A stretch of 64,000 nucleotides of DNA, from positions 607-64,606 of the forward strand of contig JAZDKQ010000023.1 of assembly GCA_043802865.1 (NCBI GenBank), given 5' to 3'. The notes below the pieces were generated by a model. The model did not search any database, was not told the DNA's origin, and worked only from the letters and a program-made list of their open reading frames with translations. Shown here piece after piece: positions 10,694 through 55,758 of this stretch. This DNA comes from Candidatus Moraniibacteriota bacterium (GTDB taxonomy: Bacteria > Patescibacteriota > Minisyncoccia > Moranbacterales > UBA11712). Position 1 is the first letter of the stretch. The number at the start of each line of letters is the position of its first letter. The position numbers and the translations under genes are program-made.

Positions 10694-10721
10694 AGACGCG
10701 ATTAATCGCGTCTCTACGGGG
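10691..10721. repeat. family-C palindromic element, copy 1 (intergenic)
   Basis: TAGAGACGCGATTAATCGCGTCTCTA is a perfect 26-nt palindrome followed by CGGGG. Same element at 28641 and 54371. Confidence 0.8.
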
Positions 10722-17703: not shown

Positions 17704-18837
17704 TCACTTTGTGAAACTCTCGTATATTCCCAGCGTTTTCTCTGCGGTTTTTTGCCAAGTATATTTTTTGGCGATTTCAATCCCCTTTCCAATCAGGCTG
17801 TTTCGCAAATTCTCGTCCGACAAAACTGCGTTTATTTTTTCGGCAAAGTCTTTGGGATTTTTTGGGTCGCCAAACAGCGCCGCGTCCTTGCCGATCTCGC
17901 GAAGAACCGGAATGTCAGAGCAGACAACCGGCGTACCGGCAGCCATCGCTTCAATGATCGGAATACCAAAACCTTCGTATAGTGACGGAAAAACAAAGCA
18001 AGCGGCCATTTGCAGCAATGCGGGCTTGTCCTCTTCGTCGATCCATCCGGGGAATATTATTTTATCAGCAAGATTATTTTTCTCGATTGTTTCGTCAATT
18101 TTTGGATCAAAATTGTGTGCTTTCCGGTTTCCGGCGAGGATCAATGGCATATCCAAGTCTTTCAGCGCTTCAATTACAACCGTAATATTTTTTCTTGGCT
18201 GAAGCGTGCCGATATATAGTATGTATTTTGTATTTGGTATTTTGTATTTGGTATTAATTTTTTTGATTTCATCGGGAGAGTATTTTTTGTTAAATCGGCT
18301 AAAATCCACCCCATTGTATACGCAATCAACTTTTTTCGGTGGAATTTTGTAAAAATCAATGATATTTTTTTTCTCGCCTTTCGAAATGGTGATTATTTTG
18401 TTGGCCCGGCGAATACTTCTCGGAATAAGAGTCTTCAAAAAAAACAAATCGGATTTTTTGATATATTCGGGAAAATAGTTGAATGAAATGTCGTGAATTG
18501 TCAGAGCCAATTTCACTTTTTTTGGCTGCCAAAAAGGAGCAATGTATTGCGTGTGAAAAACATCCACCGAATTTTTTTTGAGATAATTCGGCAAGTACCA
18601 AAAATTCCAGCAAAAGCGGTTGGTTTTTTTGATGAAAATAACTTTGAAGTTTTGGCCAAGATCCAGTTTTTTTATTTCTTCGGACAAATCGGCGTCTTCT
18701 TTCGGATCGCGGTCAGTGAAAAGAAAATATTGATTATTTTTATCAATATCTGCCAAATTTTTCACCAAATTGAAAAACACCGCCTCATCGCCGGTTCTTT
18801 TCTTGCCGATCATCCTTATGTCGATGCCAATTTTCAT
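17704..18837 (-). CDS. family 4 glycosyltransferase (GT-B)
   Basis: MKIGIDIR start and EGFGIPIIEAMAAGTPVV motif. Contains AAATAC-type hexamer repeats encoding NTKYKIPNTKY. Confidence 0.7.
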   Translation of the reverse strand: MKIGIDIRMIGKKRTGDEAVFFNLVKNLADIDKNNQYFLFTDRDPKEDADLSEEIKKLDLGQNFKVIFIKKTNRFCWNFWYLPNYLKKNSVDVFHTQYIAPFWQPKKVKLALTIHDISFNYFPEYIKKSDLFFLKTLIPRSIRRANKIITISKGEKKNIIDFYKIPPKKVDCVYNGVDFSRFNKKYSPDEIKKINTKYKIPNTKYILYIGTLQPRKNITVVIEALKDLDMPLILAGNRKAHNFDPKIDETIEKNNLADKIIFPGWIDEEDKPALLQMAACFVFPSLYEGFGIPIIEAMAAGTPVVCSDIPVLREIGKDAALFGDPKNPKDFAEKINAVLSDENLRNSLIGKGIEIAKKYTWQKTAEKTLGIYESFTK

Positions 18838-20403: not shown

Positions 20404-22065
20404 CTATAAATCTATTCTCCTCGAGTACGCAAGTGCTTGAAAGATAGAAGAGAAAGTTGCCAATCCCAGCCAAAACAATCCCATCAAGAGTCCCGCGTTG
20501 AAAAAATTTGGTATCAGGAGAGCCAGAAGGCTCAAAAACATAAATATATTCAAATTCTTTTCGAAATCATTCCGGATGATTGGACAGCCGATTATTTTAT
20601 TGAGCGGGCAAATGGGCGAAATTCGGCGGAAAGAATATATGAATAAATATCCGAAAATTATTGCAAAAGCAATCAGTCCCAAAATTCCGCTGCTTGCCCA
20701 AACCTGAAGAAAGATATTGCTCTCGTTCAGTCCCGCCCCTCTTTCGTCGGCTCCGAGCGCCTCGGTGATCGTTCCAAAACCGACTCCGAGGATTGGATGC
20801 TCGCGGATGATTTCGAAACTTTTTCGATAAATTTGGCTGCGAGTCATCACATTGGGGTCTTTCCGAAAAATTTCGGTGACGAATTTTCCTTGTGATTTAT
20901 AAGAATAAATTTCTTCGAGATTGATATGTCGGCAATTGAATTTGGCCAGTTCATCGGTGCTTGCAATCAATTGCGGGATATTCGCGCTGTTCTCGCACGC
21001 GATCGTGATTTTTTGTTCATTTGTCGCAGTTGATCGGGCGCGGTCGAAGATGTCGAACTTGGAAAGTTTTCCAAAATGGATCGCGATTACTGAAATTAGG
21101 GTGATTGCAAATATGATTGCTAATTGATTCAAAAACAAACGAGGGGCAAATTCAATTCGTTCTTTATTTTTTTTGTATAGATTAAAAAGCAAATAGAAAG
21201 CAATAACTGCCGCCGCACTAATCCACGCCGAGCGGGACAAAGTGAGGATGAGGAGAGTGATGTTGAGAAAGATTAATGCATAGGTTCCAGTTCGGGTGGC
21301 GCCCCCTCTCCTTGATAAGGAGAGGGCTAGGGTGAGGTTGATTGCCAGAGAAAAACACAAGAAAATCCCCAGCCAGTCGGGTTCTGTGAAGGTGGAATTC
21401 GGTCGGCCAAACATCACTTCAAATGACCGCGCGCCGAATTTGTCCGCAAAAACTTGCCAAAATCCATAGAACATAACAACCAAACTTGATCCAACAAAGA
21501 AAAAAGCAGTCTTAATAAAGTCGTTTTTATTCCGCAAAAAATTCCTGGCCAAATAATATAAAATAACAAAAGAAAACAATACCAAGCTGTTTTTGAGACT
21601 AATATTTTTAACTGGTGAGTTTATGACCGACAAGAAACTTAGCGGCACGAGCGAAAAAACCAGCCAGTCGATCCATGTGGGTTTCAGCAATTTGAAACTT
21701 AATCGTTTGGATAAATATAAAATAATCACCGCGACGGCGAGCTCCGCTCCCAGAAATTGATATGGCCGCAGTTGAAGCGGCAAAAATCCGGAAGCCAGAA
21801 TCACATTTTCCAGCGGCAAAAGCGAAACGAAAAGAAAAAATACCCATCGCGGGCGGTATAGCGCGACAAGAAGCGCCAAAATCGCGAAAAAAACAAAATC
21901 ACCCGCTCCCAGAGGTAATTTGTTCTTGCCGACAAAGACAATCAGCGCAAACCCCAACGCCACGCTGAAGATCCAGAGAAGAACAAGTTCTTTTTTTAAT
22001 AAATTTTTTATTTTCTGAAAATAATGATTAATCTCCATTACATTATTTGCCTGTAGTTTCTTCAA
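20404..22065 (-). CDS. O-antigen ligase/polymerase-like (Wzy_C) polytopic membrane protein
   Basis: Ten or more TM helices; TLSRSAWISAAAVIAF resembles the Wzy_C SRgaWla motif; sits in a glycan locus. Confidence 0.45.
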   Translation of the reverse strand: MKKLQANNVMEINHYFQKIKNLLKKELVLLWIFSVALGFALIVFVGKNKLPLGAGDFVFFAILALLVALYRPRWVFFLFVSLLPLENVILASGFLPLQLRPYQFLGAELAVAVIILYLSKRLSFKLLKPTWIDWLVFSLVPLSFLSVINSPVKNISLKNSLVLFSFVILYYLARNFLRNKNDFIKTAFFFVGSSLVVMFYGFWQVFADKFGARSFEVMFGRPNSTFTEPDWLGIFLCFSLAINLTLALSLSRRGGATRTGTYALIFLNITLLILTLSRSAWISAAAVIAFYLLFNLYKKNKERIEFAPRLFLNQLAIIFAITLISVIAIHFGKLSKFDIFDRARSTATNEQKITIACENSANIPQLIASTDELAKFNCRHINLEEIYSYKSQGKFVTEIFRKDPNVMTRSQIYRKSFEIIREHPILGVGFGTITEALGADERGAGLNESNIFLQVWASSGILGLIAFAIIFGYLFIYSFRRISPICPLNKIIGCPIIRNDFEKNLNIFMFLSLLALLIPNFFNAGLLMGLFWLGLATFSSIFQALAYSRRIDL

Positions 22066-25717: not shown

Positions 25718-27643
25718 ATGGTCATCGATCTCCTAAAATTGATTCTCACAATCCCCTTTCTCCTTGTTTTGCCGGGGTTCTTTTTCCAATTGGCTGTTTT
25801 CGGCATGAAAAGCAGAAAAATATCTTTTTTTGAAAAAGCGGTCTTGACCGTTCCATTCAGCCTGATTGCCGTCAACTTGATCATTTTGCTTCTGGACAAG
25901 TTGAATATTCTGCTGAAAGGCCCGGTGATCGTCGGGGCTGTGCTGATATTTTGTGCTGTGTGTTTCGCGGTTTTTCAATTTCGATTCGGAAAGAAAAAAA
26001 ACAAAGAGGATGGCGTGGAGCCTGAAAAAATATTTAATTTTTCCACTTGGCAGACGATTTTCATTCTTCTTGCAATCGTTCTGGCGATTTTCATCCGCAC
26101 AGCCTATCTCTCCGATACGATCGTCCCCTCTTCAACCGATCTGGGACATCATATGTATTGGTCCCAGATGATCATCAATTCTGGACATCTTCCCGAATAT
26201 GGAATGCCGGACTTCATCATCGGTGAACATATCGTTTTTTCCGCGGTGAATCTTGTGAGCGGGGCGGGATTGATGTCGGCGATGCCGGCGCTTCTCCTTT
26301 TTCTTTTCAACATCACAGGAATTTTCACCATCGCGATCCTGCTTGGTCGGATATTTGAAAACAAAAAGATCGTCGCTGTTTCTTTTTTCGTCGCCGGATC
26401 TTTGTACGCAATAAACGCGCCGCAAGGGCGATATGTGAGCGGCGGAGTCATTGGAAATATCATTGGCGATATGCTGATTCCCGTGGCGCTATATTTTCTC
26501 TATCGTGCTCTCACCGAAAAAGATCAAATTTTTGCCGGCCTATTCCTCTTTTCATTCGCGGGACTGCTTTATACCCATCATTTGAGTGCGTTTATTTTTA
26601 TTTTTTCAATTGTTGCTATCATAGCTCTGTATCTGATATTGAACTTCAGAAATATCTTCAAGATTGCCGGAGATTGGCTGAAAGTGTTTTTGAAGCCGTT
26701 TCCTCTCGCGATTTTGCTGCTGGTCGCCTTCTTTTTTCTGTTTGTTTTCACACCGTCATATTTCAATTCAGCTGCGGTGAGTCAAGCCACGGGTACGCCC
26801 ACGAAGATCACGCGAGTTGGCTTGAGTTTGAGTCAAATTGAGAGAGGCATCGGAAGCGCCCAATTGTTTTTGGCCGGACTCGGGTTTCTTTTGGTCCTTC
26901 TTGAACTGTTTAGAGAAAAAGAATGGTCCGCCCGAGGCGGATCTCAGCCAAAGGCTGACCAGCCTCTGGCCGGCGCCGAAAAATTTGGCGGAAAATATTC
27001 CGTCGCACTTAGCTGGATTTTGATCCTTTTTGTCATGACATGGAAGCCGGCACTTCTGGATGTGAATATTCCCAGCGACCGGATAAGTAATTATTTGTTT
27101 TTGCCGATCGCTCTTCTCTCCGCCTACGGCTTGGTGCGATATTTTGAAATTTTTGGCGCGGCAGCCTCCCGCTTCTCTTCGGCTGTTTTGCTTTTCACGC
27201 TCCTGTTTTTCGTCATCACGAACGGACTTTCGGACAGCGCGGACGCCTTCAAGACAAAAAACCAATTTCAGCAAGCGGTGCAAACTTTTCACTCGGCCGA
27301 GTATCTGGCGTCAACAGTGGACACAAACAAAGATATAATTTTGAAAGACCATGTGAACATATACGGAGATTCGTGGTACAAATTGTTTTTTATGAAAGAT
27401 TATAAATATCCCCTCTCTCGAGGAGTTCTCACGCGATATGTTGATCCGACAAAAACGCGCGAAACTTGTACGCGGGACATGATCTCTTTTCCGGAAAGCG
27501 ATACCGCGAAGGAATGTTTTGCCGATACGGGCGTGAACTACGTCGCCGTGAATTCCCAGATCGAAGGCAATAGTTTTGAAAAATACCCGGATTTCTCAAA
27601 AGTCTACGGCTCGGATTATATTTCTATTTTTAGAAGAGATTAA
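25718..27643 (+). CDS. large polytopic membrane protein (possible GT-C-type glycosyltransferase/polymerase)
   Basis: At least 12 predicted TM helices plus a C-terminal soluble domain. No firm motif. Carries a family-A element in-frame at 26928. Confidence 0.4.
   Translation: MVIDLLKLILTIPFLLVLPGFFFQLAVFGMKSRKISFFEKAVLTVPFSLIAVNLIILLLDKLNILLKGPVIVGAVLIFCAVCFAVFQFRFGKKKNKEDGVEPEKIFNFSTWQTIFILLAIVLAIFIRTAYLSDTIVPSSTDLGHHMYWSQMIINSGHLPEYGMPDFIIGEHIVFSAVNLVSGAGLMSAMPALLLFLFNITGIFTIAILLGRIFENKKIVAVSFFVAGSLYAINAPQGRYVSGGVIGNIIGDMLIPVALYFLYRALTEKDQIFAGLFLFSFAGLLYTHHLSAFIFIFSIVAIIALYLILNFRNIFKIAGDWLKVFLKPFPLAILLLVAFFFLFVFTPSYFNSAAVSQATGTPTKITRVGLSLSQIERGIGSAQLFLAGLGFLLVLLELFREKEWSARGGSQPKADQPLAGAEKFGGKYSVALSWILILFVMTWKPALLDVNIPSDRISNYLFLPIALLSAYGLVRYFEIFGAAASRFSSAVLLFTLLFFVITNGLSDSADAFKTKNQFQQAVQTFHSAEYLASTVDTNKDIILKDHVNIYGDSWYKLFFMKDYKYPLSRGVLTRYVDPTKTRETCTRDMISFPESDTAKECFADTGVNYVAVNSQIEGNSFEKYPDFSKVYGSDYISIFRRD
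26928..26978. repeat. family-A element (extended variant) in-frame in membrane protein gene
   Basis: TCCGCCCGAGGCGGATCTCAGCCAAAGGCTGACCAGCCTCTGGCCGGCGCC encodes SARGGSQPKADQPLAGA. Confidence 0.6.
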
Positions 27644-28020: not shown

Positions 28021-29153
28021 AAAAGATATTATTATTGACTCGGCCGATTTGTTCCCCGTGGGATGAAGGGTCGAAAAATTTTGCCTATACCCTTGCCAAA
28101 TACGCGAGTGATTTTGAAATTCATATATTAACATGCGGATCTTTAGCGGATTTGGCGGATAATATTGTTCAACATCAGATTTATACATCGCCGAAACTGG
28201 ATTTTTCTCAAAAATTCAGATTATTTAAGTTTCTTAAAAAGGCTAATGATTTTGATATCATTCATTCCCTTTTTACTCCGACAAAACTAAATTCTTTTTT
28301 TATCAAGTTTGCGTTGAAGAGTAAAAAAGCAAAATTTATTCAAACTGTTGCTACTTTGCGCGAAGATTTGTATAGCGAGGGAGATTTCAAGAAAATATTA
28401 TTCGGTGATCAGATCATCACCTATTCCGATTATGCCAAAGAAAAACTGGAGAAAATGGGTTTTGATAAAATAAAAAGAATTTATCCTGGGATTGACATTG
28501 AAAAATACTCTCCTTCTCCAAAAAATCAGGAACTCATGAAAAAACTCGAAACGAGTGAGGATGATTTTGTCATCAATTATGCCGGCGAGTATGTGCGGCT
28601 TGGGGATATGGATGATATTATCGAGACGTTTATCGGACTCGTAGAAACGCGATTAATCGCGTCTCTACAGGGAGAAATTAAAAAGAATTTCAAACTACAT
28701 CTCGCCGTGCGGGTGAAGAATGAAAAAGACGCAAATAAGAAAAAAGAAATTATTAAAAAATTAGAAAGAGAAAATATCCTGGACAGGGTGGCTTTTATTG
28801 ACGACGGCAGTTATGAGATGCAAGATATCTTTAATCTCTGTGATATTTCCATTTTCCCCGCGCGCACAATGGCCGGGAAATTTGATATTCCCCTGGCTGT
28901 CATCGAGGCGATGGCTTGCGGAAAGCCGGTGGTCGCGAGCAATCTTGAAAGGATTAAATATTTTCTCAGCAATGAAAATAGCATCCTGATCGCGCCCGGA
29001 AACCGTGAAGTCCTCAAAGAGAATATTTTGTATCTATATAATAATCCAGAAAAACGATACGATTTGGCAAAAAAAGCGATAAGGTTCGTTCGGGAAAACT
29101 TTGATATAATGAAAGTGGTGAAGGAGTATGAAGAAGTTTATGAAAAACTATGA
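28017..29153 (+). CDS. family 4 glycosyltransferase carrying an in-frame family-C palindromic element
   Basis: C-terminal FPARTMAGKFDIPLAVIEAMACGKPVVASN. Element at 28641-28671 reads VETRLIASLQG. Confidence 0.7.
   Translation: MKKILLLTRPICSPWDEGSKNFAYTLAKYASDFEIHILTCGSLADLADNIVQHQIYTSPKLDFSQKFRLFKFLKKANDFDIIHSLFTPTKLNSFFIKFALKSKKAKFIQTVATLREDLYSEGDFKKILFGDQIITYSDYAKEKLEKMGFDKIKRIYPGIDIEKYSPSPKNQELMKKLETSEDDFVINYAGEYVRLGDMDDIIETFIGLVETRLIASLQGEIKKNFKLHLAVRVKNEKDANKKKEIIKKLERENILDRVAFIDDGSYEMQDIFNLCDISIFPARTMAGKFDIPLAVIEAMACGKPVVASNLERIKYFLSNENSILIAPGNREVLKENILYLYNNPEKRYDLAKKAIRFVRENFDIMKVVKEYEEVYEKL
28641..28671. repeat. family-C palindromic element, copy 2 (in-frame inside GT4 gene)
   Basis: GTAGAAACGCGATTAATCGCGTCTCTACAGGG. 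Offset from the ATG is 624 nt, which is a multiple of 3. Confidence 0.8.
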
Positions 29154-30625
29154 ACATTGAATCTCTATTCGCTCACAAAAAGAAATTTCAAACGGACAAA
29201 ATGAAAGTCCCGGCGATTTTGCATTGCTCGGACAATCTTTTGCCGAACGAAAAAACTCTCGCGCAGCTTGAAAATACCGCTTCGCAAGAACATGTTTTTC
29301 ACCACATTGCGGCGCTTTCGGATGTTCACGACAAAAAAGGCCGCAAAAATCCGACCGGGACAGTTGTCGCGAGCGAAAATTTTCTTTTGCCGCAGATCAA
29401 CGACACGGCGCCAAACTGCGGAATGCGGTTTTTGAAAACGAATCTAACAGACGCTGATTTGGCTCCGGAAAATATCAACAAATTATTCAACGCCCTTTTG
29501 AAGCCGGTTCCGACAAAAGCCTACGTCGGATCGAAAATTCCATATTCTCTTGTCGTGGATATATGCCGGCACGGACTTAAGCCGGTGACGGAATATTTCA
29601 AGACGCGAACAAAAAATGAGATCAAAAATACTTTCAAGGGCGGAAATTTTTTTTCCGCCGAAGGCGGATCCGCCTCTGGCGGAGACATACCCAGCAAACA
29701 AGATATCACTGACGCTATTCCCCAGTTGTTTTTGTGGATTGGAAAATTTCGTCTCGGAATTCTTGGAGCGGCAGGAAATCATTTTTTGGATCTCATGAAG
29801 ATATCCGAAATAAAAGATCCTGAAATGGCAGAAAAATTTGGGATCAAAAAAGGACAATATATTTTTATGATGCACACTGGATCAGGACTTTTGGGACAGT
29901 ATGCATCGTACCTGTATACTCCAAAGAAAAAAGAACATACAAGCCAGCGCATTGTGCTTGAACTTGGGAAACTGACATGGCGATCCGGAAAGAAAGATAC
30001 CTACAAGAAAATTGCGAAGAAAATCGCCGAGTATAAAGATAAAGACGAATTTTTCGCCTATGACGCGGAATCCCCCGAAGGAAAAATGTTTTTGACGGCG
30101 CATCAAGCAGCGGGCAATCAAGGATTTGCCAATCGCTGCATTCTCACTCACAATCTTGATCAGACAATTGAAAAAGTTTTGGGAAAAAATCCCGAGCTAG
30201 AACTCCTTTATGACGCGCCGCATATTTTTGTGAATCGCGAAAACCATTTTGGAAAGGATGTTTGGGTGCATCGCAACGGCGCTGTCCGGGCGATTGCCGG
30301 AGAACCCGTTTTCATTCCGTCTTCTATGTCAACTCCTGCCTATCTGGCTGTTGGCACTGATCAGAATGAATCAACATTTTTTTCTGCCGCTCACGGCACC
30401 GGACGACGAAAAAATCCCGAAAGCAACAAAGCCGGGACAAAGGACGAATTGTTCGCGAAAATGCAGCAGCGAAAAGTAAAATTGTTCAACGCCAAATCAA
30501 AAGGTGTGGTTTTTCAGGATTCAGGATATTATAAGGATGTTGAAGAAGTGATCGCCGGAATGGAAGAAAACAAAATCGTGAAACCGGTGGCGAAAATGGA
30601 ACCAATTGCCGTTTTAATGTACTAA
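29150..30625 (+). CDS. rtcB: RtcB-family RNA ligase (divergent), carrying an in-frame family-A element
   Basis: LSDVHDKKGRKNPTGTVVAS (compare MPDVHxGxG), APNCGMRF (compare DINCGVRL), HTGSGLLGQ, HRNGAVRA, PSSMSTPAYLAVGT, AAHGTGRR. Confidence 0.65.
   Translation: MNIESLFAHKKKFQTDKMKVPAILHCSDNLLPNEKTLAQLENTASQEHVFHHIAALSDVHDKKGRKNPTGTVVASENFLLPQINDTAPNCGMRFLKTNLTDADLAPENINKLFNALLKPVPTKAYVGSKIPYSLVVDICRHGLKPVTEYFKTRTKNEIKNTFKGGNFFSAEGGSASGGDIPSKQDITDAIPQLFLWIGKFRLGILGAAGNHFLDLMKISEIKDPEMAEKFGIKKGQYIFMMHTGSGLLGQYASYLYTPKKKEHTSQRIVLELGKLTWRSGKKDTYKKIAKKIAEYKDKDEFFAYDAESPEGKMFLTAHQAAGNQGFANRCILTHNLDQTIEKVLGKNPELELLYDAPHIFVNRENHFGKDVWVHRNGAVRAIAGEPVFIPSSMSTPAYLAVGTDQNESTFFSAAHGTGRRKNPESNKAGTKDELFAKMQQRKVKLFNAKSKGVVFQDSGYYKDVEEVIAGMEENKIVKPVAKMEPIAVLMY
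29653..29684. repeat. family-A element in-frame in rtcB
   Basis: TTCCGCCGAAGGCGGATCCGCCTCTGGCGGAG encodes SAEGGSASGGD. Confidence 0.7.
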
Positions 30626-35225: not shown

Positions 35226-35366
35226 ATCCTCCCCTCCTCAGTTTCCGCCAAAGGCGGATCTGCCCCTGGTTGAGAGGAGGGGGCAGGGGGAGGTGTTGCA
35301 AGAGCGCAGAAAACTCTCAACACCCCTCTGTCCTTCGGACATCTCCCCCCATCTAAGAGGAGAAGG
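35226..35366. repeat. family-B structured element, copy 1, with a nested family-A copy (35242-35268); supplies the priA SD
   Basis: Matches 47317-47430 except for the 27-nt insert TTTCCGCCAAAGGCGGATCTGCCCCTGGT. TIRs are ATCCTCCCCTCCTCA / TGAGGGGAGAAGGAT. The 3' end reads AGAGGAGAAGG 5 nt before the priA ATG. Confidence 0.8.
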
Positions 35367-35370
35367 TTTA

Positions 35371-37326
35371 ATGAAAATTATCTCCGTGAATAAGTATCTT
35401 ATCCAAGTTGCTCCTATCATTCCTCTTCCTGTTAGCCGCACGCAGGTTTTTTCATATTGGCATAGTGAAAATATTTCGCCGGGGACGCTGGTTTCGGCGC
35501 CTTTCTATTTTCGTGATATTCAGGGCATAGTTGTTGGTTCAAGTGAGAAATCTTCAAGGCGAGAATCGCTTGAATTGAAAAATATCAGGTCGGTCATAGA
35601 AGAAAAATTTTTGAACGAAAATCAAATTAAGCTCGCTCGAAAAATCGCCGAATACTATTTCGCGCCACTCGGGTCAGTGCTTAAGCTGATGGTTCCGAAA
35701 GTAGTGAAGCAGAGGGTGAAAAAAACAGGGAAAATCGGCCTGCCCGCAGTGCTTCGCGTAGCGAGGCGGGCGGGCGAGGAAGCGTTGAAAATAATAAATA
35801 GCAAAAAAAATAAATTTCTGTTGATCGGGGGTGGAAAGAAGAGAGAAAAAATAAATGCCGATTTGATCCAAGAATGTCTGAAAAGCGGCAAGCAGTGCCT
35901 CATACTTGCGCCAGAAATATTTTTTTCGCATAATGTTTATGAAAAGCTAAATGCGGAATTTTCCGAAGAGATCGCACTTATCCACAGCCGAATAACAAAA
36001 GGACAATACTATAGTTGGTGGGAAAAAATAAAAACGGGGAAAATAAGAATAATAATTGCCTCAAAACAAGGAATATTTTTGCCTTTTTCCGATTTGGGTC
36101 TCATCATTATTCAAGACGAGCAGGATATTTCATTCAAGCAGTGGGAGTCGATGCCTCGCTACAGCGGAGTGCGGGGGGCGGAATTTTTGGCCGATATCGC
36201 GGGCGCGAAATTGGTTTTGGAAAGCTTCGCGCCGTCGGCCGAGACTTTATATAGGGCGAAAAACCGTGAAATAGAAATAGTTGAAACAAAAATCGATAAA
36301 AGTGACTTTCCGAAGTTTGAGATTGTTTCATTGGAGAAAGAAAAGAAAAATCCGGACTTTCCCATTTCAAACATGCTGTACAGCCGTTTGGCTGAAATCG
36401 TGAACAGCAAAAAACAAGCCGTTGTTTTTGTGAACAGGCGTGGGTTTTCCACCCGCACGACATGCGAAAATTGCAAAAAATTTTTGAAATGTCCAAAATG
36501 CGACCGGGCGCTCATATATTCGGAAGAACAATCGCAATATCGCTGTTTGCACTGCGCCTACAAAATGGAACTCTTCAGCGCCTGCCCGTCTTGCGGCGGA
36601 TTTCAATTTTCGCATCGCGGAATCGGAACGCAAACGGTTGAAAAAAAGATCAAACGGCTTTTCTCTTCGGCGCGGGTTGTTCGTCTCGACGCGGACGCAG
36701 CGAAAAGTTTGGAGAAATACCGAAGCATACTGCAAGATTTTTCGGCGGGCAAAATCGATATTCTTGTCGGCACGCAGTCGGCGATCAAGGGGATATATTC
36801 GGACGGCGTCGAATTGGCCGCTTCGATCTCGGGGCGTGATTTCACGGATGGAATTGAATTCAATTCTCGCGCTCTCGCGCTCTCGCGGTTATTTTATATG
36901 GCGAACTTGCTAAACAAAAATGGAATTTTGACAATCCAATCCTTTTTCGGCGGCAATCCCCTTTTTGACTATTTGGAAAAAAATGAATTGAAAAAATATT
37001 TTGTACGCGAACTTGCAATGCGAAAAAAATTGTCCTATCCTCCGTTTCGCAAATTTGTGAAGCTTGGCTTTCGCGATAAATCCGAAAGAAAGGCCGTGAA
37101 CGAAACGAAAAAAACATTTGACTTGCTGCGAGCGACGAGCAATAATGAGATTGAAATAATCGGCCCGTACGCGGCATTATCACTCCAAAAAAGAGGCTTG
37201 TATCAGCGAAATATTCTTCTGAAATTCGATCCCGAAAAAAACATTGGCGACTTGCCCGTTCGATCTGCGATCGGAGCTCTGCGCAAAGGCTGGTCGGTCG
37301 ATGTTGATCCAGTTTCAATATTTTAG
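35371..37326 (+). CDS. priA: primosomal protein N' (PriA helicase), Walker A apparently degenerate
   Basis: N-terminal 3'-DNA-binding-like domain, Cys-rich zinc region (CENCKKF..CPKCD..CLHCAY..CPSCGG), Walker B-like IIIQDEQD. The Walker A position reads LIGGGKKREK rather than GxxGxGKT. Confidence 0.7.
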   Translation: MKIISVNKYLIQVAPIIPLPVSRTQVFSYWHSENISPGTLVSAPFYFRDIQGIVVGSSEKSSRRESLELKNIRSVIEEKFLNENQIKLARKIAEYYFAPLGSVLKLMVPKVVKQRVKKTGKIGLPAVLRVARRAGEEALKIINSKKNKFLLIGGGKKREKINADLIQECLKSGKQCLILAPEIFFSHNVYEKLNAEFSEEIALIHSRITKGQYYSWWEKIKTGKIRIIIASKQGIFLPFSDLGLIIIQDEQDISFKQWESMPRYSGVRGAEFLADIAGAKLVLESFAPSAETLYRAKNREIEIVETKIDKSDFPKFEIVSLEKEKKNPDFPISNMLYSRLAEIVNSKKQAVVFVNRRGFSTRTTCENCKKFLKCPKCDRALIYSEEQSQYRCLHCAYKMELFSACPSCGGFQFSHRGIGTQTVEKKIKRLFSSARVVRLDADAAKSLEKYRSILQDFSAGKIDILVGTQSAIKGIYSDGVELAASISGRDFTDGIEFNSRALALSRLFYMANLLNKNGILTIQSFFGGNPLFDYLEKNELKKYFVRELAMRKKLSYPPFRKFVKLGFRDKSERKAVNETKKTFDLLRATSNNEIEIIGPYAALSLQKRGLYQRNILLKFDPEKNIGDLPVRSAIGALRKGWSVDVDPVSIF

Positions 37327-37828: not shown

Positions 37829-38812
37829 TTGATTAATAAACCAAAAATTGTATTCTTCGGCACGCCGGAATTTGCGGCGGGGGTTTTGAAATCGCTTGTT
37901 GGCAACAAATACAATATTGCTTTTGTCTTCACTCAGCCGGACAAAAAAATTGGGAGAAGACAAGAAGTTGTTTTTTCTCCGGTGAAAGATTTGGCGCTGA
38001 AAAACAAAATTGAAATATTTCAGCCGGAAAGTTTGCGAGACAGTGAATTGGCCGAAAAGATTAAAAAAATTGGCGCTGATCTTTTTGTTGTCGCCGCGTA
38101 TGGGAAAATATTACCCAAAGATATATTGGAAATTCCAAAATATGGAGCGATAAACATTCACGCATCTCTCCTTCCAAAATATCGCGGAGCGTCGCCGGTG
38201 CAATGTGCTATCCTCTCTGGAGAAAAAGAAACAGGGATCACAGTGATGAAAATGAACGAAAAGATGGATGAGGGTGATATTTTGGCGCAGAAAAAGATAG
38301 AGATCGGCGAAAATGAAACGGCGGATTTATTGTTAAATAGGCTGTCAAAAATTGGAGCGGACATGATTGGCGAATTTATTCCCGACTGGATTTCCGGAAA
38401 AATAAAGTCGATTCCTCAAGATCAAAATATGGCGACTTATTGCAAGCCGGTCAAGCGCGAAGACGGGAGAATAGATTGGAATTGTCCCGCCGAAGAAATA
38501 AGCTGCAAATGGCGAGCCTATTATCCCTGGCCGGGAATATATTCAATAATAAATATCTCCGCCAGAGGCGGATCCGCCTTTGACGGAAAAAATCAGCCCA
38601 AAAGGCTGAAATTGTTGGAGATAGAGATTATTCCCAATATAAAGACTGGCGAAAAAACCGGGAAAATTATAGAATATGATCAGAAAGTTGCCGTTCAAAC
38701 GGAAATTGGATTGATAATTTTGAAAAAAGTTCAACTTGAAGGGAAGAAGGAAATAGATATCGATGAATTTTTGAGAGGCAATGTCGGATTCATTGGAAGT
38801 ATTTTGGAATAA
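37829..38812 (+). CDS. fmt: methionyl-tRNA formyltransferase, carrying an in-frame family-A element
   Basis: MINKPKIVFFGTPEFA; SLLPKYRGASPVQ; C-terminal domain present. TTG start. Confidence 0.85.
   Translation: MINKPKIVFFGTPEFAAGVLKSLVGNKYNIAFVFTQPDKKIGRRQEVVFSPVKDLALKNKIEIFQPESLRDSELAEKIKKIGADLFVVAAYGKILPKDILEIPKYGAINIHASLLPKYRGASPVQCAILSGEKETGITVMKMNEKMDEGDILAQKKIEIGENETADLLLNRLSKIGADMIGEFIPDWISGKIKSIPQDQNMATYCKPVKREDGRIDWNCPAEEISCKWRAYYPWPGIYSIINISARGGSAFDGKNQPKRLKLLEIEIIPNIKTGEKTGKIIEYDQKVAVQTEIGLIILKKVQLEGKKEIDIDEFLRGNVGFIGSILE
38557..38587. repeat. family-A element in-frame in fmt
   Basis: CTCCGCCAGAGGCGGATCCGCCTTTGACGGA encodes SARGGSAFDG in the C-terminal domain. Confidence 0.7.
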
Positions 38813-42828: not shown

Positions 42829-42901
42829 GGCTGGGGTGCTAGGATTCGAACCTAGGATCATGGGACCAGAACCCATTGCCTTACCACTTGGCTACACCCC
42901 A
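42829..42901 (-). tRNA. tRNA-Gln (anticodon CUG)
   Basis: TGGGGTGTAGCCAAGTGGTAAGGCAATGGGTTCTGGTCCCATGATCCTAGGTTCGAATCCTAGCACCCCAG. U1-A72 and G73 as in bacterial tRNA-Gln; anticodon loop TTCTGGT. Confidence 0.85.
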
Positions 42902-43155
42902 ATGTTATTATATTTTTCTATAATATCTCTTTTTTCTCCCACCCCACTATAACTTTTCAAATATTTTTCCCTTAATCTGGCTTCGGGCATCGATGTATGC
43001 TGTTCTGTGTATATTAGGGCAAATGGTCTTCTTGAACGAGTAGATTTAACTTTGCCTGAATTGTGATTAGATAACCTTTTCCTGACATCAGCAGTAATGC
43101 CGACGTAACAATTATCGTCTTGTAGGCTTTTAAGAATATAGAGGTAATATTTCAT
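42892..43155 (-). CDS. GIY-YIG nuclease-family small protein; stop codon lies inside tRNA-Gln (positions 8-10)
   Basis: MKYYLYILKSLQDDNCYVGITADVRKRLSNHNSG...RPFALIY matches the GIY-YIG core. ATG at 43155; the track extension to 43221 reads through the tRNA fragment. Confidence 0.6.
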   Translation of the reverse strand: MKYYLYILKSLQDDNCYVGITADVRKRLSNHNSGKVKSTRSRRPFALIYTEQHTSMPEARLREKYLKSYSGVGEKRDIIEKYNNIGV

Positions 43156-43157
43156 TG

Positions 43158-43214
43158 TTTTACCACTTGCCTGCCCGCGGCTGAGCCTTGGGCGCGGCCA
43201 GGGGCTACACCCCA
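43158..43214 (-). repeat. duplicated 5' end of tRNA-Gln (positions 1 to about 20) interrupted by a 33-nt GC-rich family-A-like insert
   Basis: Minus strand reads TGGGGTGTAGCC-[CCTGGCCGCGCCCAAGGCTCAGCCGCGGGCAGG]-CAAGTGGTAA, immediately upstream of the GIY-YIG ATG. Confidence 0.7.
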
Positions 43215-43254
43215 ATAACATCCCAGATTCTATAATATTTTGGGAAAAATATCA

Positions 43255-46252: not shown

Positions 46253-47305
46253 TCAGAACACCGAAGGATCCCCTTCGGAATTGGCGGGAAGGTTTTGCTC
46301 GAAAGTTCGCATTCCGCCGTCGCGGAACTCGATTTGAGTATTGCTTGAATTCCACTGGTAGTCTTTCAAGAATATTGTAACCGAGTAAACCTTCGTTTTT
46401 TCTTTCAACCAGTCGGCAAAAGTGGTTTTTTTCACGAAAATCTGGCGAAGATGCACCAAATCAAATCCGTTGTCCATCTTTTTCTCTTCCAATTTCAGAA
46501 CATGGAACCCAAGCGGGCTTTCGATCGGTTCACTGATCTCCCCCGTTTTCATCGAAAACGCTTTGTCTGCGACAGTTTGGATCAGCTGATCTTTCGTCGA
46601 CCAGCCGAGATCGCCTCCGTTTTCCGCGCTTTGTCCGTCTGAATTTTCTTTCGCCACTTTTGCGAAATCCTCTTTTTTGCTTGTCGCTTTTTCATAGAGC
46701 GATTTTATTTTTGCTTGCTGAGTGCTTGTGTCCATTTCATTCACATAAACTTCCGCCAATTTTTCGCTGTACATTCCGGGCTTCACAACTTTTTGTTCGA
46801 AGTCATTGATGGTCCAGCCGTATAGTCTTGCAAGGTCGCTCATCAAATTGTCCTTGTTTCCGAATTGTTGGATAGTGCTCTCAAGTTCCGTGGAGACAGC
46901 ACTGTTAGTGAGTGTGATACCGCGCTTTTGAGCAAGATTTTCGATCACCTTGTTTTCGATCATTTTATTTATGATCTCTTTTTCCTTGACTTGGAGTCTT
47001 TTTACTCCTTGATCGGTTGAAAAATCAACTCGCATGCCGATTTTTTCGAAGTCCTGCGATTCATAGAATTTTTTGACGGAAGCTACATTGACTTTGATCT
47101 CATTGACACTGATGGATCCCGCTCCGCGGACATATACGGCCGGAAACGGAATGACTTTGGTCGCGCCAACAAAAAAACGGTTGTTCCAATTGAATTTATA
47201 GACGCCAAGAACCAAAAACAGCAAAAATACAAAAATCGCGCCGGCGGCAACGCCGACAATTATCCAAATTTTGTGTTTTTTGAGATTTCCTTTTTTGTTG
47301 GGCAT
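46253..47305 (-). CDS. membrane-anchored parvulin-type peptidyl-prolyl isomerase (PpiC/PrsA-like)
   Basis: N-terminal TM; parvulin segment GGDLGWSTKDQ...ISEPIESPLGFHVLKL. Confidence 0.55.
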   Translation of the reverse strand: MPNKKGNLKKHKIWIIVGVAAGAIFVFLLFLVLGVYKFNWNNRFFVGATKVIPFPAVYVRGAGSISVNEIKVNVASVKKFYESQDFEKIGMRVDFSTDQGVKRLQVKEKEIINKMIENKVIENLAQKRGITLTNSAVSTELESTIQQFGNKDNLMSDLARLYGWTINDFEQKVVKPGMYSEKLAEVYVNEMDTSTQQAKIKSLYEKATSKKEDFAKVAKENSDGQSAENGGDLGWSTKDQLIQTVADKAFSMKTGEISEPIESPLGFHVLKLEEKKMDNGFDLVHLRQIFVKKTTFADWLKEKTKVYSVTIFLKDYQWNSSNTQIEFRDGGMRTFEQNLPANSEGDPSVF

Positions 47306-47316: not shown

Positions 47317-47430
47317 AATCCTCCCCTCCTCAACTGAGGAGGGGGCAGGGGGAGGTGTTGTGATAATGCAGAAAACTTATCAACACCCCTCTGTCCTTCG
47401 GACATCTCCCCTCATCTGAGGGGAGAAGGA
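47317..47430. repeat. family-B structured element, copy 2 (intergenic, directly upstream of 46253..47305)
   Basis: 114 nt: ATCCTCCCCTCCTCAACTGAGGAGGGGGCAGGGGGAGGTGTTG...CAACACCCCTCTGTCCTTCGGACATCTCCCCTCATCTGAGGGGAGAAGGAT. On the minus strand its end provides a GGAGG motif upstream of the PPIase ATG. Confidence 0.8.
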
Positions 47431-47449
47431 TTCTAAGATTAATAAAAAA

Positions 47450-48006: not shown

Positions 48007-49881
48007 CTATTTTCGCAAAACCGCCAAAAAGGCGCTGCTCGGGATTTCAACCCGTCCGAGATTGGTCATCTTTTTCTTTCCTTTTTTCTGCTTTTCAAGC
48101 AATTTTCTCTTGCGGGTGATGTCCCCGCCATACAACTTGGCCGTCACGTCTTTTCGGAAGGCTTTGACTGATTCGCGAGCGAGGATTTTTCCGCCAACGG
48201 CTGCTTGAAGGGCAATCACGAAGTTTTGGCGCGGAATGACATCCTTCAACTTTTCCACGGTGGCTTTGCCATCCGAAAAAACTTTTTCTTCCGGAACTAT
48301 TCTTGAGAAAGCGTCAATCCTGTCGCCCCCAACAAGAATATCGAGTTTCACGAGCTTGTTCGGCCGGTACCCAAGAAACGCATAGTTCATCGAAGCATAT
48401 CCACTCGAAGCGCTTTTCAGCTGGTCATGCAAATTGATGATGACGTCCGTGAGAGGAGATTCAAAGGTGAGGATCAGTCTTTCCGCGTCTATATATTCCG
48501 TGTTCTTGTATTCCGCTCGCGTGCTCCGCATCAGATCCATAATCGAGCCGAGATATTTTGAAGGAGAAATGAGATCGAGTTTCACATAGGGCTCTTCAAT
48601 GGATTCAATGATCGAAGGATCCGGCATTTCAAGGGGAGAATATATTTTAATTTTTTTTACTTTTCCGCCCGAGGCGGATCCGCCTTTGGCGGATATTTCA
48701 TATACCACGCTTGGAGTGGTAATGACTGGGTCTATTTCAAATTCCCTTTTGAGTCTTTCCTGGACAATTTCTATATGAAGGAGTCCTAAAAATCCGCAGC
48801 GAAATCCCCGTCCTAGCGCCAGATTGGCTTCCGGTTCAAACGCGAACGCGGCATCGTTGAGTTTCAATTTTCCCAGCGCGTCTCGCATGAAGTTGTAATC
48901 GTCTCCTTCTTTCGGATAGAAACTGGCATAAACAACCGGCCGGATCTCTTTGTATCCGGGAAGCGCCTGCATTTCGCCTGGGTTTTTTTCCAAAACGATC
49001 GTATCGCCGACGCGGCAGTCTTCGACGGTTTTGAATCCGGTCGCGATGTATCCGATATCGCCCGCGGACAATTCATTTGTTTTTTCCAAATTCGGCTTGA
49101 AATGGCCGACTTCGATCACGGAACTTCCCTGCTTGGTCGCCATAGCGAGAATTTTTTCTTCGGCATGGATCTTTCCGTCGACAATTCGGACATAGGCGAG
49201 AACTCCTCTGTAGGTATCATATTTTGAATCAAAAATGAGAGCGCGAAGAGATTTTTCCTGTTTTCCTTTGGGAGAAGAAATTTTTTCGACGATCGTTTCA
49301 AGAATTTTTTCAACGCCTTCCCCTGTTTTCCCACTGGCCTCGAGAATTTCTTCTTCCTTGCAGCCGAGAAGATGAACGATTTCTTTTTTCGTTTTTTCTA
49401 TCTCGGCGTTCGGAAGATCTATTTTGTTGATCACGGGAATGATTTCCAGCCCCTGTTCGATGGCATAATAGAGATTGGCGACTGTCTGCGCTTGTACGCC
49501 TTTTGACGCGTCCACAAGCAAAACCGCGCCCTCCACAGCGGCCAGGGAGCGAGAAACTTCATATTGAAAGTCCACATGCCCGGGAGTGTCTATGAGATTC
49601 AAGATAAAAAAGTCCGGCTTTGAGGAATTGGAGGCGTCAGCCGACAAGGGAAAAGCCGGACTTTGATTTGAAATCCGAGGACTATAAATCATCCTTACGG
49701 GTTGTAATTTTATAGTAATGCCACGCTCGCGCTCAAGATCCATCGTGTCCAGAAGCTGTTCTTTCATCTTTCGATCTTCGACCGTATGCGTAATCTCAAG
49801 CATCCGATCGGCCAGAGTGGATTTCCCATGATCGATATGCGCGATTATACAAAAATTCCGGATGTTTTGCTGGTTATTCAT
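48007..49881 (-). CDS. lepA: elongation factor 4 (LepA) carrying two in-frame palindromic insertions
   Basis: IIAHIDHGKSTLADR, NLIDTPGHVDF, conserved C-terminal domain. Extra segments GGSASGG and SPRISNQSPAFPLSADASNSSKPD. Confidence 0.9.
   Translation of the reverse strand: MNNQQNIRNFCIIAHIDHGKSTLADRMLEITHTVEDRKMKEQLLDTMDLERERGITIKLQPVRMIYSPRISNQSPAFPLSADASNSSKPDFFILNLIDTPGHVDFQYEVSRSLAAVEGAVLLVDASKGVQAQTVANLYYAIEQGLEIIPVINKIDLPNAEIEKTKKEIVHLLGCKEEEILEASGKTGEGVEKILETIVEKISSPKGKQEKSLRALIFDSKYDTYRGVLAYVRIVDGKIHAEEKILAMATKQGSSVIEVGHFKPNLEKTNELSAGDIGYIATGFKTVEDCRVGDTIVLEKNPGEMQALPGYKEIRPVVYASFYPKEGDDYNFMRDALGKLKLNDAAFAFEPEANLALGRGFRCGFLGLLHIEIVQERLKREFEIDPVITTPSVVYEISAKGGSASGGKVKKIKIYSPLEMPDPSIIESIEEPYVKLDLISPSKYLGSIMDLMRSTRAEYKNTEYIDAERLILTFESPLTDVIINLHDQLKSASSGYASMNYAFLGYRPNKLVKLDILVGGDRIDAFSRIVPEEKVFSDGKATVEKLKDVIPRQNFVIALQAAVGGKILARESVKAFRKDVTAKLYGGDITRKRKLLEKQKKGKKKMTNLGRVEIPSSAFLAVLRK
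48664..48695. repeat. family-A element in-frame in lepA
   Basis: TTCCGCCCGAGGCGGATCCGCCTTTGGCGGAT encodes SAKGGSASGGK (minus-strand reading). Confidence 0.7.
49609..49664. repeat. family-D palindromic insertion in the lepA G-domain region
   Basis: AAAGTCCGGCTTT...31 nt...AAAGCCGGACTTT (13-bp inverted repeat). Coincides with about 18 extra residues before NLIDTPGHVDF. Confidence 0.55.
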
Positions 49882-54616: not shown

Positions 54617-55758
54617 CTTTTATATATTTCAAGCGTTTCTTTCGCCATTTTTTTCCAGCTGTATTTTTGAATTTGTTTTTTCCCGGCTTCAATCAATTTT
54701 TTTCGCAAATCATTGTCCGTCAAAACTTTTTCAATCACTTCGGAAGCTTCAGAAACACCTCGCGGATCAAAGAAAAGGGCGGCATTCCCCAATATTTCCG
54801 GCAGACAGGACGCATTGGAACTTGCGACTGGAATATTTCTTGCCATCGCTTCAAGCGGCGGGAGACCGAATCCCTCATAAAGCGAAGGAAAAACATACAG
54901 CCTTGCTTCGCGATATATTGTTGGCAGATGATCTTCATCTATATGGTCGGGAAAAACAACGTTTGAAACTTCATTGTCCGCCACGAATTTTTTCAGCCGT
55001 TTGTAAAAATAATCTTCCTTTCCCGCGAGAACCAAGCTCAAACCGGGATGCTTTTTGGCAACTCCCTTGAAAGCCGAAATGAGCCGTTCGAGATTTTTGT
55101 GCGGGTAGGCATTTCCGACATACAAAATGTACGGTCTCATTATACCATACTTTTTGAGAACAGTTTCCGAATTTTCCAGCAGTGGTTTTTCAATCGTGTC
55201 CACCCCCTCATAGGTGACGATAATTTTTTTCGAATCTATATCGAAATTTTCCAGTATATCTTTTTTCGTGTGCTCCGAAACGGCGATTATTTTTTCCGAT
55301 TTCTTGATGGCTCGGTTGATCACTCGATGATACGCTTTTTTCTTGAAAAAATATGCCGGAGCCGACAAAGTTGACGCCTTACGGGTGGAATATCGAAAAA
55401 GAATAAGGTCGTGAATCGTGACGATGAATTTTCCTTTGTATGAAACAGGAACATTGAAGTGGGGAAAATGGACAAGATCAAGTCCGCAGCTCGCAAAGAT
55501 TTTCGGCATTTGGATCTGTTCCCGCAGTGTGTACCAAGGGACATCCGCCAAAACTTTCGTGAAATGTTTGCTTTGAGGCTGGTATTCATCCCAATTTTCT
55601 TTTCGGAGAAATATAAAAAACTGGTAGGAATTGTCCCAGCCGGAGGCTGGTCCGTCTTGGGCGGAGATATTTTCCAGATTTTCTATCAGTTTTTGAGTAT
55701 ACCGCCCGAGTCCCTTTCCTATCGACCCGAAAAAGCGGGCATCGATTCCAATGCGCAT
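54607..55758 (-). CDS. family 4 glycosyltransferase
   Basis: MRIGIDARFF start and YEGFGLPPLEAMA motif. Confidence 0.7.
   Translation of the reverse strand: MRIGIDARFFGSIGKGLGRYTQKLIENLENISAQDGPASGWDNSYQFFIFLRKENWDEYQPQSKHFTKVLADVPWYTLREQIQMPKIFASCGLDLVHFPHFNVPVSYKGKFIVTIHDLILFRYSTRKASTLSAPAYFFKKKAYHRVINRAIKKSEKIIAVSEHTKKDILENFDIDSKKIIVTYEGVDTIEKPLLENSETVLKKYGIMRPYILYVGNAYPHKNLERLISAFKGVAKKHPGLSLVLAGKEDYFYKRLKKFVADNEVSNVVFPDHIDEDHLPTIYREARLYVFPSLYEGFGLPPLEAMARNIPVASSNASCLPEILGNAALFFDPRGVSEASEVIEKVLTDNDLRKKLIEAGKKQIQKYSWKKMAKETLEIYKSCG

Follow-up and report, generated by a model that had tools for sequence, protein, structure and literature searches.

An intergenic repeat of a Candidatus Moraniibacteriota bacterium is probably a non-autonomous DNA element built from two inverted triplex-type modules

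To our knowledge, intrastrand triplex repeats, known as BoxC, PIT or TMECO, have been on record for about 25 years, and we know of no function for them. REP/REPIN sequences (RAYT, Y1/HUH) and IS200/IS605 elements are short, non-autonomous inverted doublets that insert with no target duplication and are recognized as folded single strands, and the Correia/NEMIS miniature inverted-repeat transposable elements (MITEs) of Neisseria alter the expression of neighboring genes. PIT, BoxC and TMECO denote one and the same repeat with the consensus CCCTCNCCC N3-6 GGGNGAGGG N3 GGGNGAGGG (Holder et al. 2015, PMC4666352). A TMECO single strand folds in vitro into a triplex of high stability as judged by circular dichroism and nuclear magnetic resonance (NMR); the motifs lie between genes without preference for a strand, in five cases as inverted pairs that combine two subtypes, and the loci are more variable between strains (PMC4666352). 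In that paper, earlier work is cited as having found no promoter or terminator activity for PIT/TMECO, and the loop limits are given as 1-6 nt for the search of Holder et al. (ITxF) and as 0-10 nt for that of Hoyne et al. 2000. Here, we analyze a stretch of 64,000 nucleotides (the window) from contig JAZDKQ010000023.1 of a Candidatus Moraniibacteriota bacterium, a member of the Candidate Phyla Radiation (CPR), which holds two copies of a non-coding element of about 114 nt, family B. We suggest, with a probability of roughly 0.7, that family B represents a DNA repeat, non-coding and non-autonomous, of triplex-type inverted modules that is inserted in very short AT-rich gene junctions, and we document its status as a repeat, its anatomy, its insertion, its lack of strand preference, the covariation of its three tracts and its distribution across phyla and phages.

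The two copies lie at 35226-35366 (copy 1, 141 nt, + strand) and 47317-47431 (copy 2, intact, + strand). In an alignment that spans the shorter copy from end to end, 102 of the 114 shared positions are identical (89.5%) outside one 31-column gap block, and a 31-mer (CAACACCCCTCTGTCCTTCGGACATCTCCCC) and a 25-mer (GAGGAGGGGGCAGGGGGAGGTGTTG), taken from the two different halves of the element, each occur exactly twice in the 64 kb window, with 0 occurrences expected from 100 shuffles. The original prediction, which was made from the letters of this stretch alone, had equated copy 1 with copy 2 plus a nested insert, and the alignment bears this out. It had also placed a 27-nt copy of another repeat of the window, the 7-copy family A (TCCGCC-NNNN-GGCGGA, twice), in the first hairpin loop; the location and the likeness to family A stand (82% over 33 nt), while the insert measures about 30 nt and consists of a TCCGCC-AAAG-GCGGA hairpin and a decayed second hairpin (35241-35270, + strand, loop 1 of the left module). 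Because loop 1 is the most variable position across the wider superfamily described below and holds another insert in locus L122, nesting at this place is structurally tolerated.

Family B is an imperfect palindrome in which two modules form an inverted pair. On the + strand, copy 2 begins with the terminal AATCCT and ends with the terminal AGGATT. Its left module (47322-47357, + strand) reads CCCCTCCTC - AACT - GAGGAGGGGG - CA - GGGGGAGGTG, i.e. pyrimidine arm, loop, purine arm, loop and mirror tract, such that hairpin 1 is formed by CCCCTCCTC - AACT - GAGGAGGGG(G) and is followed by the short CA loop. The central stem has the 5' arm GGGGGAGGTGTTG and the 3' arm CAACACCCCTCT on either side of approximately 20 variable nucleotides (47361-47380), a spacer or hairpin tip that comes in two sequence subtypes among the copies. 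The right module (47384-47426) reads on the - strand TCTCCCCTC - loop - GAGGGGAGA - T plus the hairpin GTCC-GAA-GGAC - AGAGGGG(T). Seen from the + strand, the third tract comes first and is followed by the hairpin, the pyrimidine arm and the purine arm, with hairpin 3 being GTCC-TTC-GGAC, followed by A, and hairpin 4 being TCTCCCCTC - ATCT - GAGGGGAGA. In copy 1, all parts of which are given on the + strand, the left module consists of the pyrimidine arm CCCCTCCTC (35231-35239), the purine arm GAGGAGGGGG (35274-35283) and, after a CA loop, the mirror-image third tract GGGGGAGGTG (35286-35295), which doubles as the 5' arm of the central stem. In its right module, copy 1 retains the conserved 26-mer CCCCTCT / GTCCTTCGGAC / A / TCTCCCC (35323-35348), and its right-hand hairpin is decayed: the purine arm together with the terminus, TAAGAGGAGAAGG (35354-35366), carries three substitutions relative to the family consensus and holds an AGGAG that resembles a Shine-Dalgarno (SD) sequence.

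This anatomy agrees in part with that read from the letters originally. The long internal arms GGGGGAGGTGTTG / CAACACCCCTC pair as claimed. For the terminal inverted repeats ATCCTCCCCTCCTCA / TGAGGGGAGAAGGAT, copy 2 shows complementarity at 12 of 15 positions, whereas in copy 1 the right repeat has been partly lost (AAGGTTT). The CCTTCGG motif was mistaken for something like a tetraloop; it is not C(UUCG)G and belongs to a 4-bp stem, GTCC/GGAC, with a TTC triloop. Both the layout of a hairpin plus a mirror-image third tract and the sharing of the 3' module across phyla were missed in that reading.

Each module consists of a hairpin, made of a pyrimidine arm and a purine arm, and of a third tract behind it in which the purine arm is mirrored. 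In the right module, CCCCTCT neither complements nor repeats TCTCCCC; it is the mirror image of that tract. Read parallel to the purine arm GGGGAGA, CCCCTCT sets C against G and T against A, as the rule for pyrimidine-motif triplexes demands, and on the opposite strand AGAGGGG mirrors GGGGAGA in antiparallel orientation, as the rule for the purine motif demands. From this mirror relation it follows that the small hairpin GTCC-TTC-GGAC would be the linker that joins the third strand to the duplex. On the + strand of the left module, GAGGAGGGGG and GGGGGAGGTG, separated by CA, mirror each other at 9 of 10 positions; the remaining one has T opposite A, as the purine motif permits. The three-tract pattern of class II motifs in the sense of PMC4666352, with a purine tract preceded by its Watson-Crick complement on the 5' side and followed by its mirror image on the 3' side, is present in the left modules of both copies (35230-35296 and 47322-47357, + strand) and in the right module of copy 2 (47384-47426, - strand), and is absent from the decayed right module of copy 1. 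An ITxF-like scan of the window yielded four class II motifs, i.e. these three and one at 21304-21339, and the same scan of 30 dinucleotide shuffles of the window gave 1 match in total.

The resemblance to PIT/BoxC/TMECO is extensive. Like these repeats, family B is GC-rich and intergenic, has approximately 35-45 nt per module with tracts of 8-10 nt, follows the strand order pyrimidine arm, loop, purine arm, loop and mirror purine tract with T allowed opposite A, and has no strand bias; inverted pairs of different subtypes are frequent in PIT/BoxC/TMECO, and presence varies among close relatives in both. The second loop of the left module (2-3 nt) is comparable to the 3-nt second loops of TMECO (TTA or CCG), and the left module of copy 2, with loops of 4 and 2-3 nt, falls within the limits of ITxF (tracts of 6-15 nt, loops of 1-6 nt). 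The differences are equally clear. The tracts of family B, CCCCTCCTC / GAGGAGGGG(G) / GGGGGAGGTG and TCTCCCC / GGGGAGA / AGAGGGG, do not match the TMECO consensus; the first loop of copy 1 (38 nt) exceeds the ITxF loop limit; and in the right module a linker of 12 nt (T plus the 11-nt hairpin) replaces the 3-nt second loop and lies outside both published loop limits. Moreover, the core of the right module occurs across phyla and in phages, whereas reports of TMECO are confined to Proteobacteria and do not place it on mobile elements (PMC4666352), and the host of family B is a CPR bacterium, unlike TMECO hosts, and its triplex is a prediction from sequence. By its sequence, then, family B is an inverted pair of one short-loop and one hairpin-linked putative triplex module in a CPR genome.

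The fourth class II motif of the window is not family B. It is a BoxC/TMECO-like motif, CCCTCTCC-TTGATAA-GGAGAGGG-CTA-GGGTGAGG (21304-21339, + strand), which is a near match to the TMECO consensus itself and which, as an exception to the intergenic location of these repeats, lies inside an O-antigen-ligase-like open reading frame (ORF; 20404-22065, - strand), just upstream of its Wzy_C domain.

Both copies in the window are insertions, because the corresponding sites are empty in close relatives at both junctions; copy 1 was inserted recently. It fills the spacer that separates a LigB/Memo-like gene from priA, two + strand genes, and that is 151 nt in the window; in L146 and in L268, the closest available relative (PriA 88% identical), the stop and start codons of these genes overlap by 4 nt (ATGA), and gene coordinates, the only data used for the P0004 contig, indicate the same overlap there. 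Copy 2 sits between divIC and the gene for a PrsA-like peptidyl-prolyl isomerase (PPIase; 46253-47305), both on the - strand, and is antisense to both. This spacer is 144 nt in the window and 23-24 nt, with no element, in L149, L151 and L148; the flanks of copy 2 align with the empty sites on both sides, leaving a 114-nt insertion between TTAG and (G)CCA. A comparison of these empty and occupied sites revealed no target-site duplication above 1-2 nt, and the flanks of 14 family B copies share no repeat. Other elements have entered the same places. In L147 (PriA 82% identical), a different AT-rich element of 131 nt with inverted ends GAATTTAGAATTTGGAATTC... / ...AATTCAAAATTCTAAATTC occupies the LigB/priA junction (2348-2500), and the DivIC/PPIase spacer contains other, unrelated small hairpins in L150 and L269; the two junctions have been colonized repeatedly.

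A census of further copies had been proposed on the basis of the first reading, and such copies, at least 14 of them in contigs of the Candidatus Moraniibacteriota type, exist in three genome contigs (L015, L025, L095) and in 13 metagenome contigs, where they have the same sharp ends and AT-rich flanks. The modules are nearly invariant among the copies, and variation is confined to the hairpin tips and the central 20 nt. L025 is a Moraniibacteriota contig, and in a homology search the PriA of the window was 100% identical to an NCBI protein from a Candidatus Moraniibacteriota metagenome-assembled genome (MAG). L015 and L095 belong to the MAG DATGZC01, which is labeled Candidatus Bathyarchaeia archaeon; a 14,008-nt contig with the same label encodes a bacterial PriA (P0014) and PPIase (P0156) that are 68% and 75% identical to those of the window. 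Because this MAG encodes bacterial PriA and PPIase close to those of the window, the label is probably wrong and the organism a CPR bacterium instead. BLAST of the element against a plasmid collection gave no match, and full-text literature searches for family B sequence strings returned no paper.

The right module has a far wider distribution than family B. Its 22-mer CCTCTGTCCTTCGGACATCTCC is found exactly in at least 120 genome contigs from (i) Chloroflexota/Anaerolineales, (ii) Bacteroidota, including isolates of Labilibaculum, Ancylomarina and Christiangramia, (iii) Ruminococcus flavefaciens isolates and other Clostridia, and (iv) Moraniibacteriota, Gracilibacteria, Shapirobacteria, Melainabacteria, Abditibacterium, Elusimicrobiaceae and others, as well as in 12 viral contigs. 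One group of these viral contigs, from tailed phages with genes for a terminase large subunit and a head maturation protease, carries 3-4 canonical modules in intergenic spacers, e.g. between the terminase and the next gene (positions 1050, 6922, 11569 and 12070 in L137; 5927, 6428 and 11075 in L143). Module flanks are unrelated between lineages: conservation begins sharply 2 bases 5' of the 22-mer and continues into a hairpin with a freely varying tip that closes with GGGGAGA. A search of viral contigs that kept the three tracts constant and left the linker open gave more than 120 loci, among which GTCCTGCCGGACA, GCCCTGCCGGGCA and GGCCTGCCGGCCA are the most frequent linkers, so that the linker stem itself co-varies. 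The linker GTCCTGCCGGACA is the version present on replicons of Rhizobium, Sinorhizobium and Ensifer, and the module with the linker GTCC-TGCC-GGAC occurs in unannotated intergenic DNA of 58 plasmid records from Rhizobium, Sinorhizobium, Ensifer and Shinella (for example, NC_007765.1 84173-84220 and NC_021908.1 83999-84046). Between long ORFs, the module is oriented sense in 19 cases and antisense in 21 where the two ORFs are co-directional, and it lies in 19 convergent and 3 divergent spacers according to crude ORF calls; the small number of divergent spacers fits selection against insertions into promoters. An all-against-all comparison of the ORFs of 145 loci revealed no protein family that recurs beside the module.

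The three tracts of the module change together. Of 142 distinct module copies, 122 have C-runs of equal length in the third tract and the pyrimidine arm, compared to a mean of 71.2 (sd 4.4, maximum 86) in 5000 permutations stratified by phylum group, and the matched classes 3/3, 4/4, 5/5, 6/6 and 7/7 recur within phylum groups. Coordinated variants of all three tracts are exemplified by CCCTTT / TTTCCCC / GGGGAA in L029 and CCCCCCT / TCCCCCC / GGGGGA in L023, L099 and L041, and a diverged family B in L121 and L123 has CCCCTCCTT / TTCCTCCCC / GGGGAGGAA and, instead of the hairpin, a 3-nt linker (CCG). The fetched loci, 809 kb in all, contain 142 class II motifs versus 0 in a shuffle; 74 of these lack the canonical core, and they comprise many tract sequences with linkers of 2-5 nt or T plus a hairpin. 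Where a perfect hairpin has an 8-nt, mirror-asymmetric purine arm, a mirror copy of that arm follows 49 times and a direct copy 3 times, or 18 versus 2 when counted by distinct arm sequences; these counts are of exact matches, a version with one mismatch being uninformative as shifted G-runs fit both rules. On these sequence comparisons it is possible, if doubtful, that the hairpin-linked module represents a phage-borne intrastrand-triplex superfamily that extends across phyla and whose three tracts co-vary by Hoogsteen or reverse-Hoogsteen rules.

Combining the anatomy with these comparisons, we propose the following scheme. On the G-rich strand, the third tract could lie antiparallel in the major groove of the hairpin, forming G.G-C, A.A-T or T.A-T triples, and on the C-rich strand it could lie parallel, forming C+.G-C and T.A-T. 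The left module would do so with a 2-3-nt linker, as in E. coli BoxC/TMECO, and the right module with the 11-nt hairpin GTCC-TTC-GGAC plus one base as linker, a version from a superfamily that is carried by phages and has probably spread across phyla by horizontal transfer. A single DNA strand that is G-rich is the most plausible folded species, because purine-motif triplexes do not form in RNA (PMC4666352) and the pyrimidine motif needs runs of protonated cytosines. The constrained features would be those of single-stranded DNA in a folded state, as it is exposed in the course of replication, repair or single-strand transfer, and not those of a transcript, and the hairpin plus third strand would be what is recognized or maintained. 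The element would most likely spread by a structure-recognizing single-strand mechanism provided in trans that creates no target duplication, as in the case of REP/REPIN-RAYT or IS200/IS605. This mobilization step is a guess, because a gene for a transposase or a RAYT-like protein is found neither among the 54 of 60 ORFs of the window that were scanned nor near the modules. The only nuclease-like candidate seen in the window is an ORF for a GIY-YIG nuclease-domain protein of 109 aa (42892-43221, - strand) beside tRNA-Gln, with no evident link to the repeats.

Several points weigh against this scheme. Since the two modules of family B have mutually complementary third tracts, the Watson-Crick central stem may outcompete a triplex in the single strand. 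The pyrimidine motif would require 4-6 adjacent protonated cytosines, which is unfavorable at neutral pH, and in the case of TMECO, in vivo footprinting with dimethyl sulfate did not support a stable triplex and the duplex was ordinary B-DNA (PMC4666352). The matching of run lengths may in part reflect a few inherited subfamilies, so that independent events would be fewer than the copy counts, and the invariance of the linker hairpin across phyla is partly by construction given that an exact 22-mer was searched for. At the copy 1 junction, approximately 10 and 19 nt of extra sequence lie beside the element, the site is rearranged and the boundaries are approximate. Finally, no transposase or RAYT-like gene was recognized in the window, in which 54 of 60 ORFs were scanned, or near the modules.

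Family B shares with REP/REPIN the organization as structured extragenic inverted doublets of short imperfect palindromes with a spacer, and the insertion without duplication; unlike REP/REPIN, its ends have no GTAG-type 5' tetranucleotide, no RAYT/TnpA gene was found in the window or beside any copy, no Y1_Tnp-type match was obtained among the 54 ORFs scanned, and the module crosses phyla whereas REP families are normally species-specific. With the Correia/NEMIS elements it has in common a size of about 100-150 bp, terminal inverted repeats, insertion next to genes and a potential expression signal that faces outward; it differs from them in having no target-site duplication, no recognized partner insertion sequence and an SD-like run that is predicted to be paired, in a host with no general use of SD sequences. 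In the right module, CCCCTCT - spacer - TCTCCCCC... is a pyrimidine mirror repeat, which is the sequence requirement of H-DNA; in contrast to H-DNA, the arms are only 7-10 nt and the complementary purine arm is on the same strand, which would allow a fold of a single strand without a supercoiled duplex. With regard to the rhizobial intergenic repeats (RIME, Sm-repeats, AB/C palindromes), the comparison covered the rhizobial replicons described above, which carry the same module. G-quadruplexes and i-motifs were discounted as readings, since no more than two G-runs occur in a single module and NMR excluded a quadruplex for TMECO (PMC4666352). A coding function, i.e. peptides of the PLCPSDISP or GEMSEGQRG type, was rejected given that flanks and reading frames differ between copies.

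The original prediction had stated that the element supplies the SD sequence of priA (35371-37326, + strand; 651 aa from the ATG at 35371). The element ends 4 nt before this ATG, not 5 nt as first stated, and AGGAG (35358-35362) is present at an appropriate spacing of 8 nt; in three respects the claim is weakened. The bases of the SD-like runs of copy 1 and copy 2 are predicted to be paired in folds of the mRNA (P(unpaired) ~0), whereas the ATG itself is open. The use of SD sequences in this genome is close to background: GGAG, GAGG or AGGA is found within 20 nt of the start in 8 of 60 long ORFs (13%) compared to 9.6% of random 17-nt windows, which agrees with the earlier statement that most native genes lack an SD, and only three of the 60 have a strong one; the window contains no 16S rRNA. 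Two of these three are the genes beside family B, priA and that for PPIase, the latter with an ATG 12 nt beyond the left end of the element and GGAGG 14 nt upstream on the - strand. Lastly, the ancestral start of priA aligns with the GTG at 35389, 18 nt downstream of the ATG, which is new. Eight relatives begin with MKKYIIQ, whereas the window has MKIISVNKYLIQ (MKIISV-NKYLIQ) with six extra residues, and the annotated start may be wrong or newly acquired. AGGAG in copy 1 and GGAGG on the PPIase side are the purine arms at the two ends of the element, and the SD-like run before priA is probably a by-product of such an arm. In copy 1, the three substitutions weaken hairpin 4 and turn GGGAG into AGGAG, which is compatible with secondary recruitment as an SD, although this is a single case. 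The insertion of copy 1 broke the start/stop overlap of the LigB-like gene and priA and would thereby have uncoupled the two, and the in-frame ATG 4 nt past the element may now start priA, preceded at 8 nt by the AGGAG of the decayed purine arm; judged by sequence, it is possible that family B provides the SD of priA.

This leads to the question of whether the element works as RNA. A structured RNA, either a leader of priA, a regulatory element or a small RNA, with its 3' end as a ribosome-binding site, would account for the stable fold of copy 2 (minimum free energy -60.2 kcal/mol, z-score -4.7), for AGGAG 8 nt before an in-frame ATG, for the start of a long ORF 4-22 nt from one end in about 10 of about 14 family copies and for the covariation of hairpin stems in the wider superfamily. 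We consider it very unlikely. The opposite strand folds as well (-59.7 kcal/mol, z-score about -5.0), copy 1 is sense and copy 2 antisense to its neighbors, and the module as a whole is as often antisense as sense. The proximity to start codons arises because the element fills tiny spacers, and in the window it is equally close to the upstream stop codons. The neighbors of different copies are unrelated, and in the closest relatives the element is missing from the junction at which priA overlaps the LigB-like gene; neither a fixed orientation nor one associated gene family nor compensatory changes, as seen in cis-regulatory and small RNAs, are evident for family B. Searches against Rfam at gathering and permissive thresholds (E-value up to 10) gave RNase P and tRNAs as the sole matches in the window, and nothing beyond microRNA noise for the element. 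Covariation across copies, proposed earlier as a check, is absent from a consensus fold of 14 family B copies (0 compensatory changes in 35 predicted pairs); because the stems of family B are invariant, this fold is neutral and argues neither for nor against any structure, and the paired SD-like bases as well as the background use of SD sequences speak against a ribosome-binding site. Given the lack of an orientation preference and of an association with a gene family, the insertion polymorphism and the lack of an Rfam match, family B is a DNA-level repeat and not an RNA gene, and a dedicated leader is disfavored as well.

Two further alternatives have to be weighed against an inverted pair of triplex-type modules. 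Family B has the terminal inverted repeats, small size, non-coding nature and multiple copies of a MITE, and it could be an ordinary one derived from an insertion sequence with a DDE transposase, in which case the terminal repeats would be transposase sites and the mirror symmetry incidental; imperfect terminal repeats in an element of about 114 bp, the polymorphic presence and the different AT-rich inverted-repeat element at the same LigB/priA junction in L147 agree with this. It is nevertheless unlikely in light of the well-resolved copy 2 site, at which no target duplication is seen, and of the fact that each terminal repeat pairs with adjacent internal sequence and not solely with the other end. 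Moreover, the right module is found solo, between flanks that are unrelated, in many phyla, and the mirror relation extends to numerous arm sequences, mirror copies far outnumbering direct ones; no autonomous element with the same termini and a transposase was detected in the window, of which 54 of 60 ORFs were scanned, and no recurrent gene, a transposase included, next to the modules. Alternatively, family B may be a REP-like hairpin cluster with a role in RNA whichever way it is oriented, be it to block 3' exonucleases, to terminate transcription weakly or to divide genes, with the tracts serving as stable stems only. Stable hairpins on both strands, the placement between genes of apparent operons and the prevalence of the module in convergent spacers together with its rarity in divergent ones speak for such a role. 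We regard it as quite unlikely: stability leaves the mirror third tract, which changes together with the purine arm, unexplained, no T-run follows the hairpins, selection against promoter insertions would likewise keep the module out of divergent spacers, and the spacer counts rest on crude ORF calls. In E. coli, PIT/TMECO motifs were without promoter or terminator activity (PMC4666352).

The window contains further repeats. Family A twin hairpins lie inside long ORFs at 48661-48693, 29651-29683, 38555-38587, 55633-55665 and 26941-26973; the copy in lepA is translated in frame to ...ISAKGGSASGGKV..., which adds 7 residues in comparison with Thermus EF4 (4w2e_y), and others are in ORFs for RtcB, a formyltransferase and a glycosyltransferase, which recalls in-frame palindromic elements such as the Rickettsia palindromic elements (RPEs). 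A third family consists of the perfect palindrome TAGAGACGCGATTAATCGCGTCTCTAC in three copies (10691-10721, 28642-28672 and 54376-54406), and short tandem repeats of the AATAC/AAAATAC type are present in inverted orientation at 2426-2471 and 18217-18270.

Returning to family B as a repeat of triplex-type modules, the findings add to the known intrastrand triplex repeats in three ways. They provide natural covariation over many lineages (49 mirror versus 3 direct copies; matched run lengths in 122 of 142 modules), i.e. the type of evidence that established RNA structures; they add a variant with a hairpin linker, a class that published surveys would have missed because loops were limited to 6-10 nt; and they supply clean empty and occupied sites that document insertion without duplication, even into a 4-nt gene overlap of a streamlined CPR genome. 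For annotation, they advise caution, as GC-rich repeats that end in purines create SD look-alikes and spurious ORFs in genomes otherwise devoid of SD sequences, and as exact 22-26-mers common to several phyla are not necessarily contamination. If the tentative superfamily of hairpin-linked modules is real, it would constitute comparative evidence that a triple-helical fold of a single strand is selected in prokaryotic genomes, and it would imply that structure-specific machinery copies or maintains such elements in Chloroflexota, Bacteroidota, Firmicutes, CPR bacteria and Rhizobiales and in their phages.

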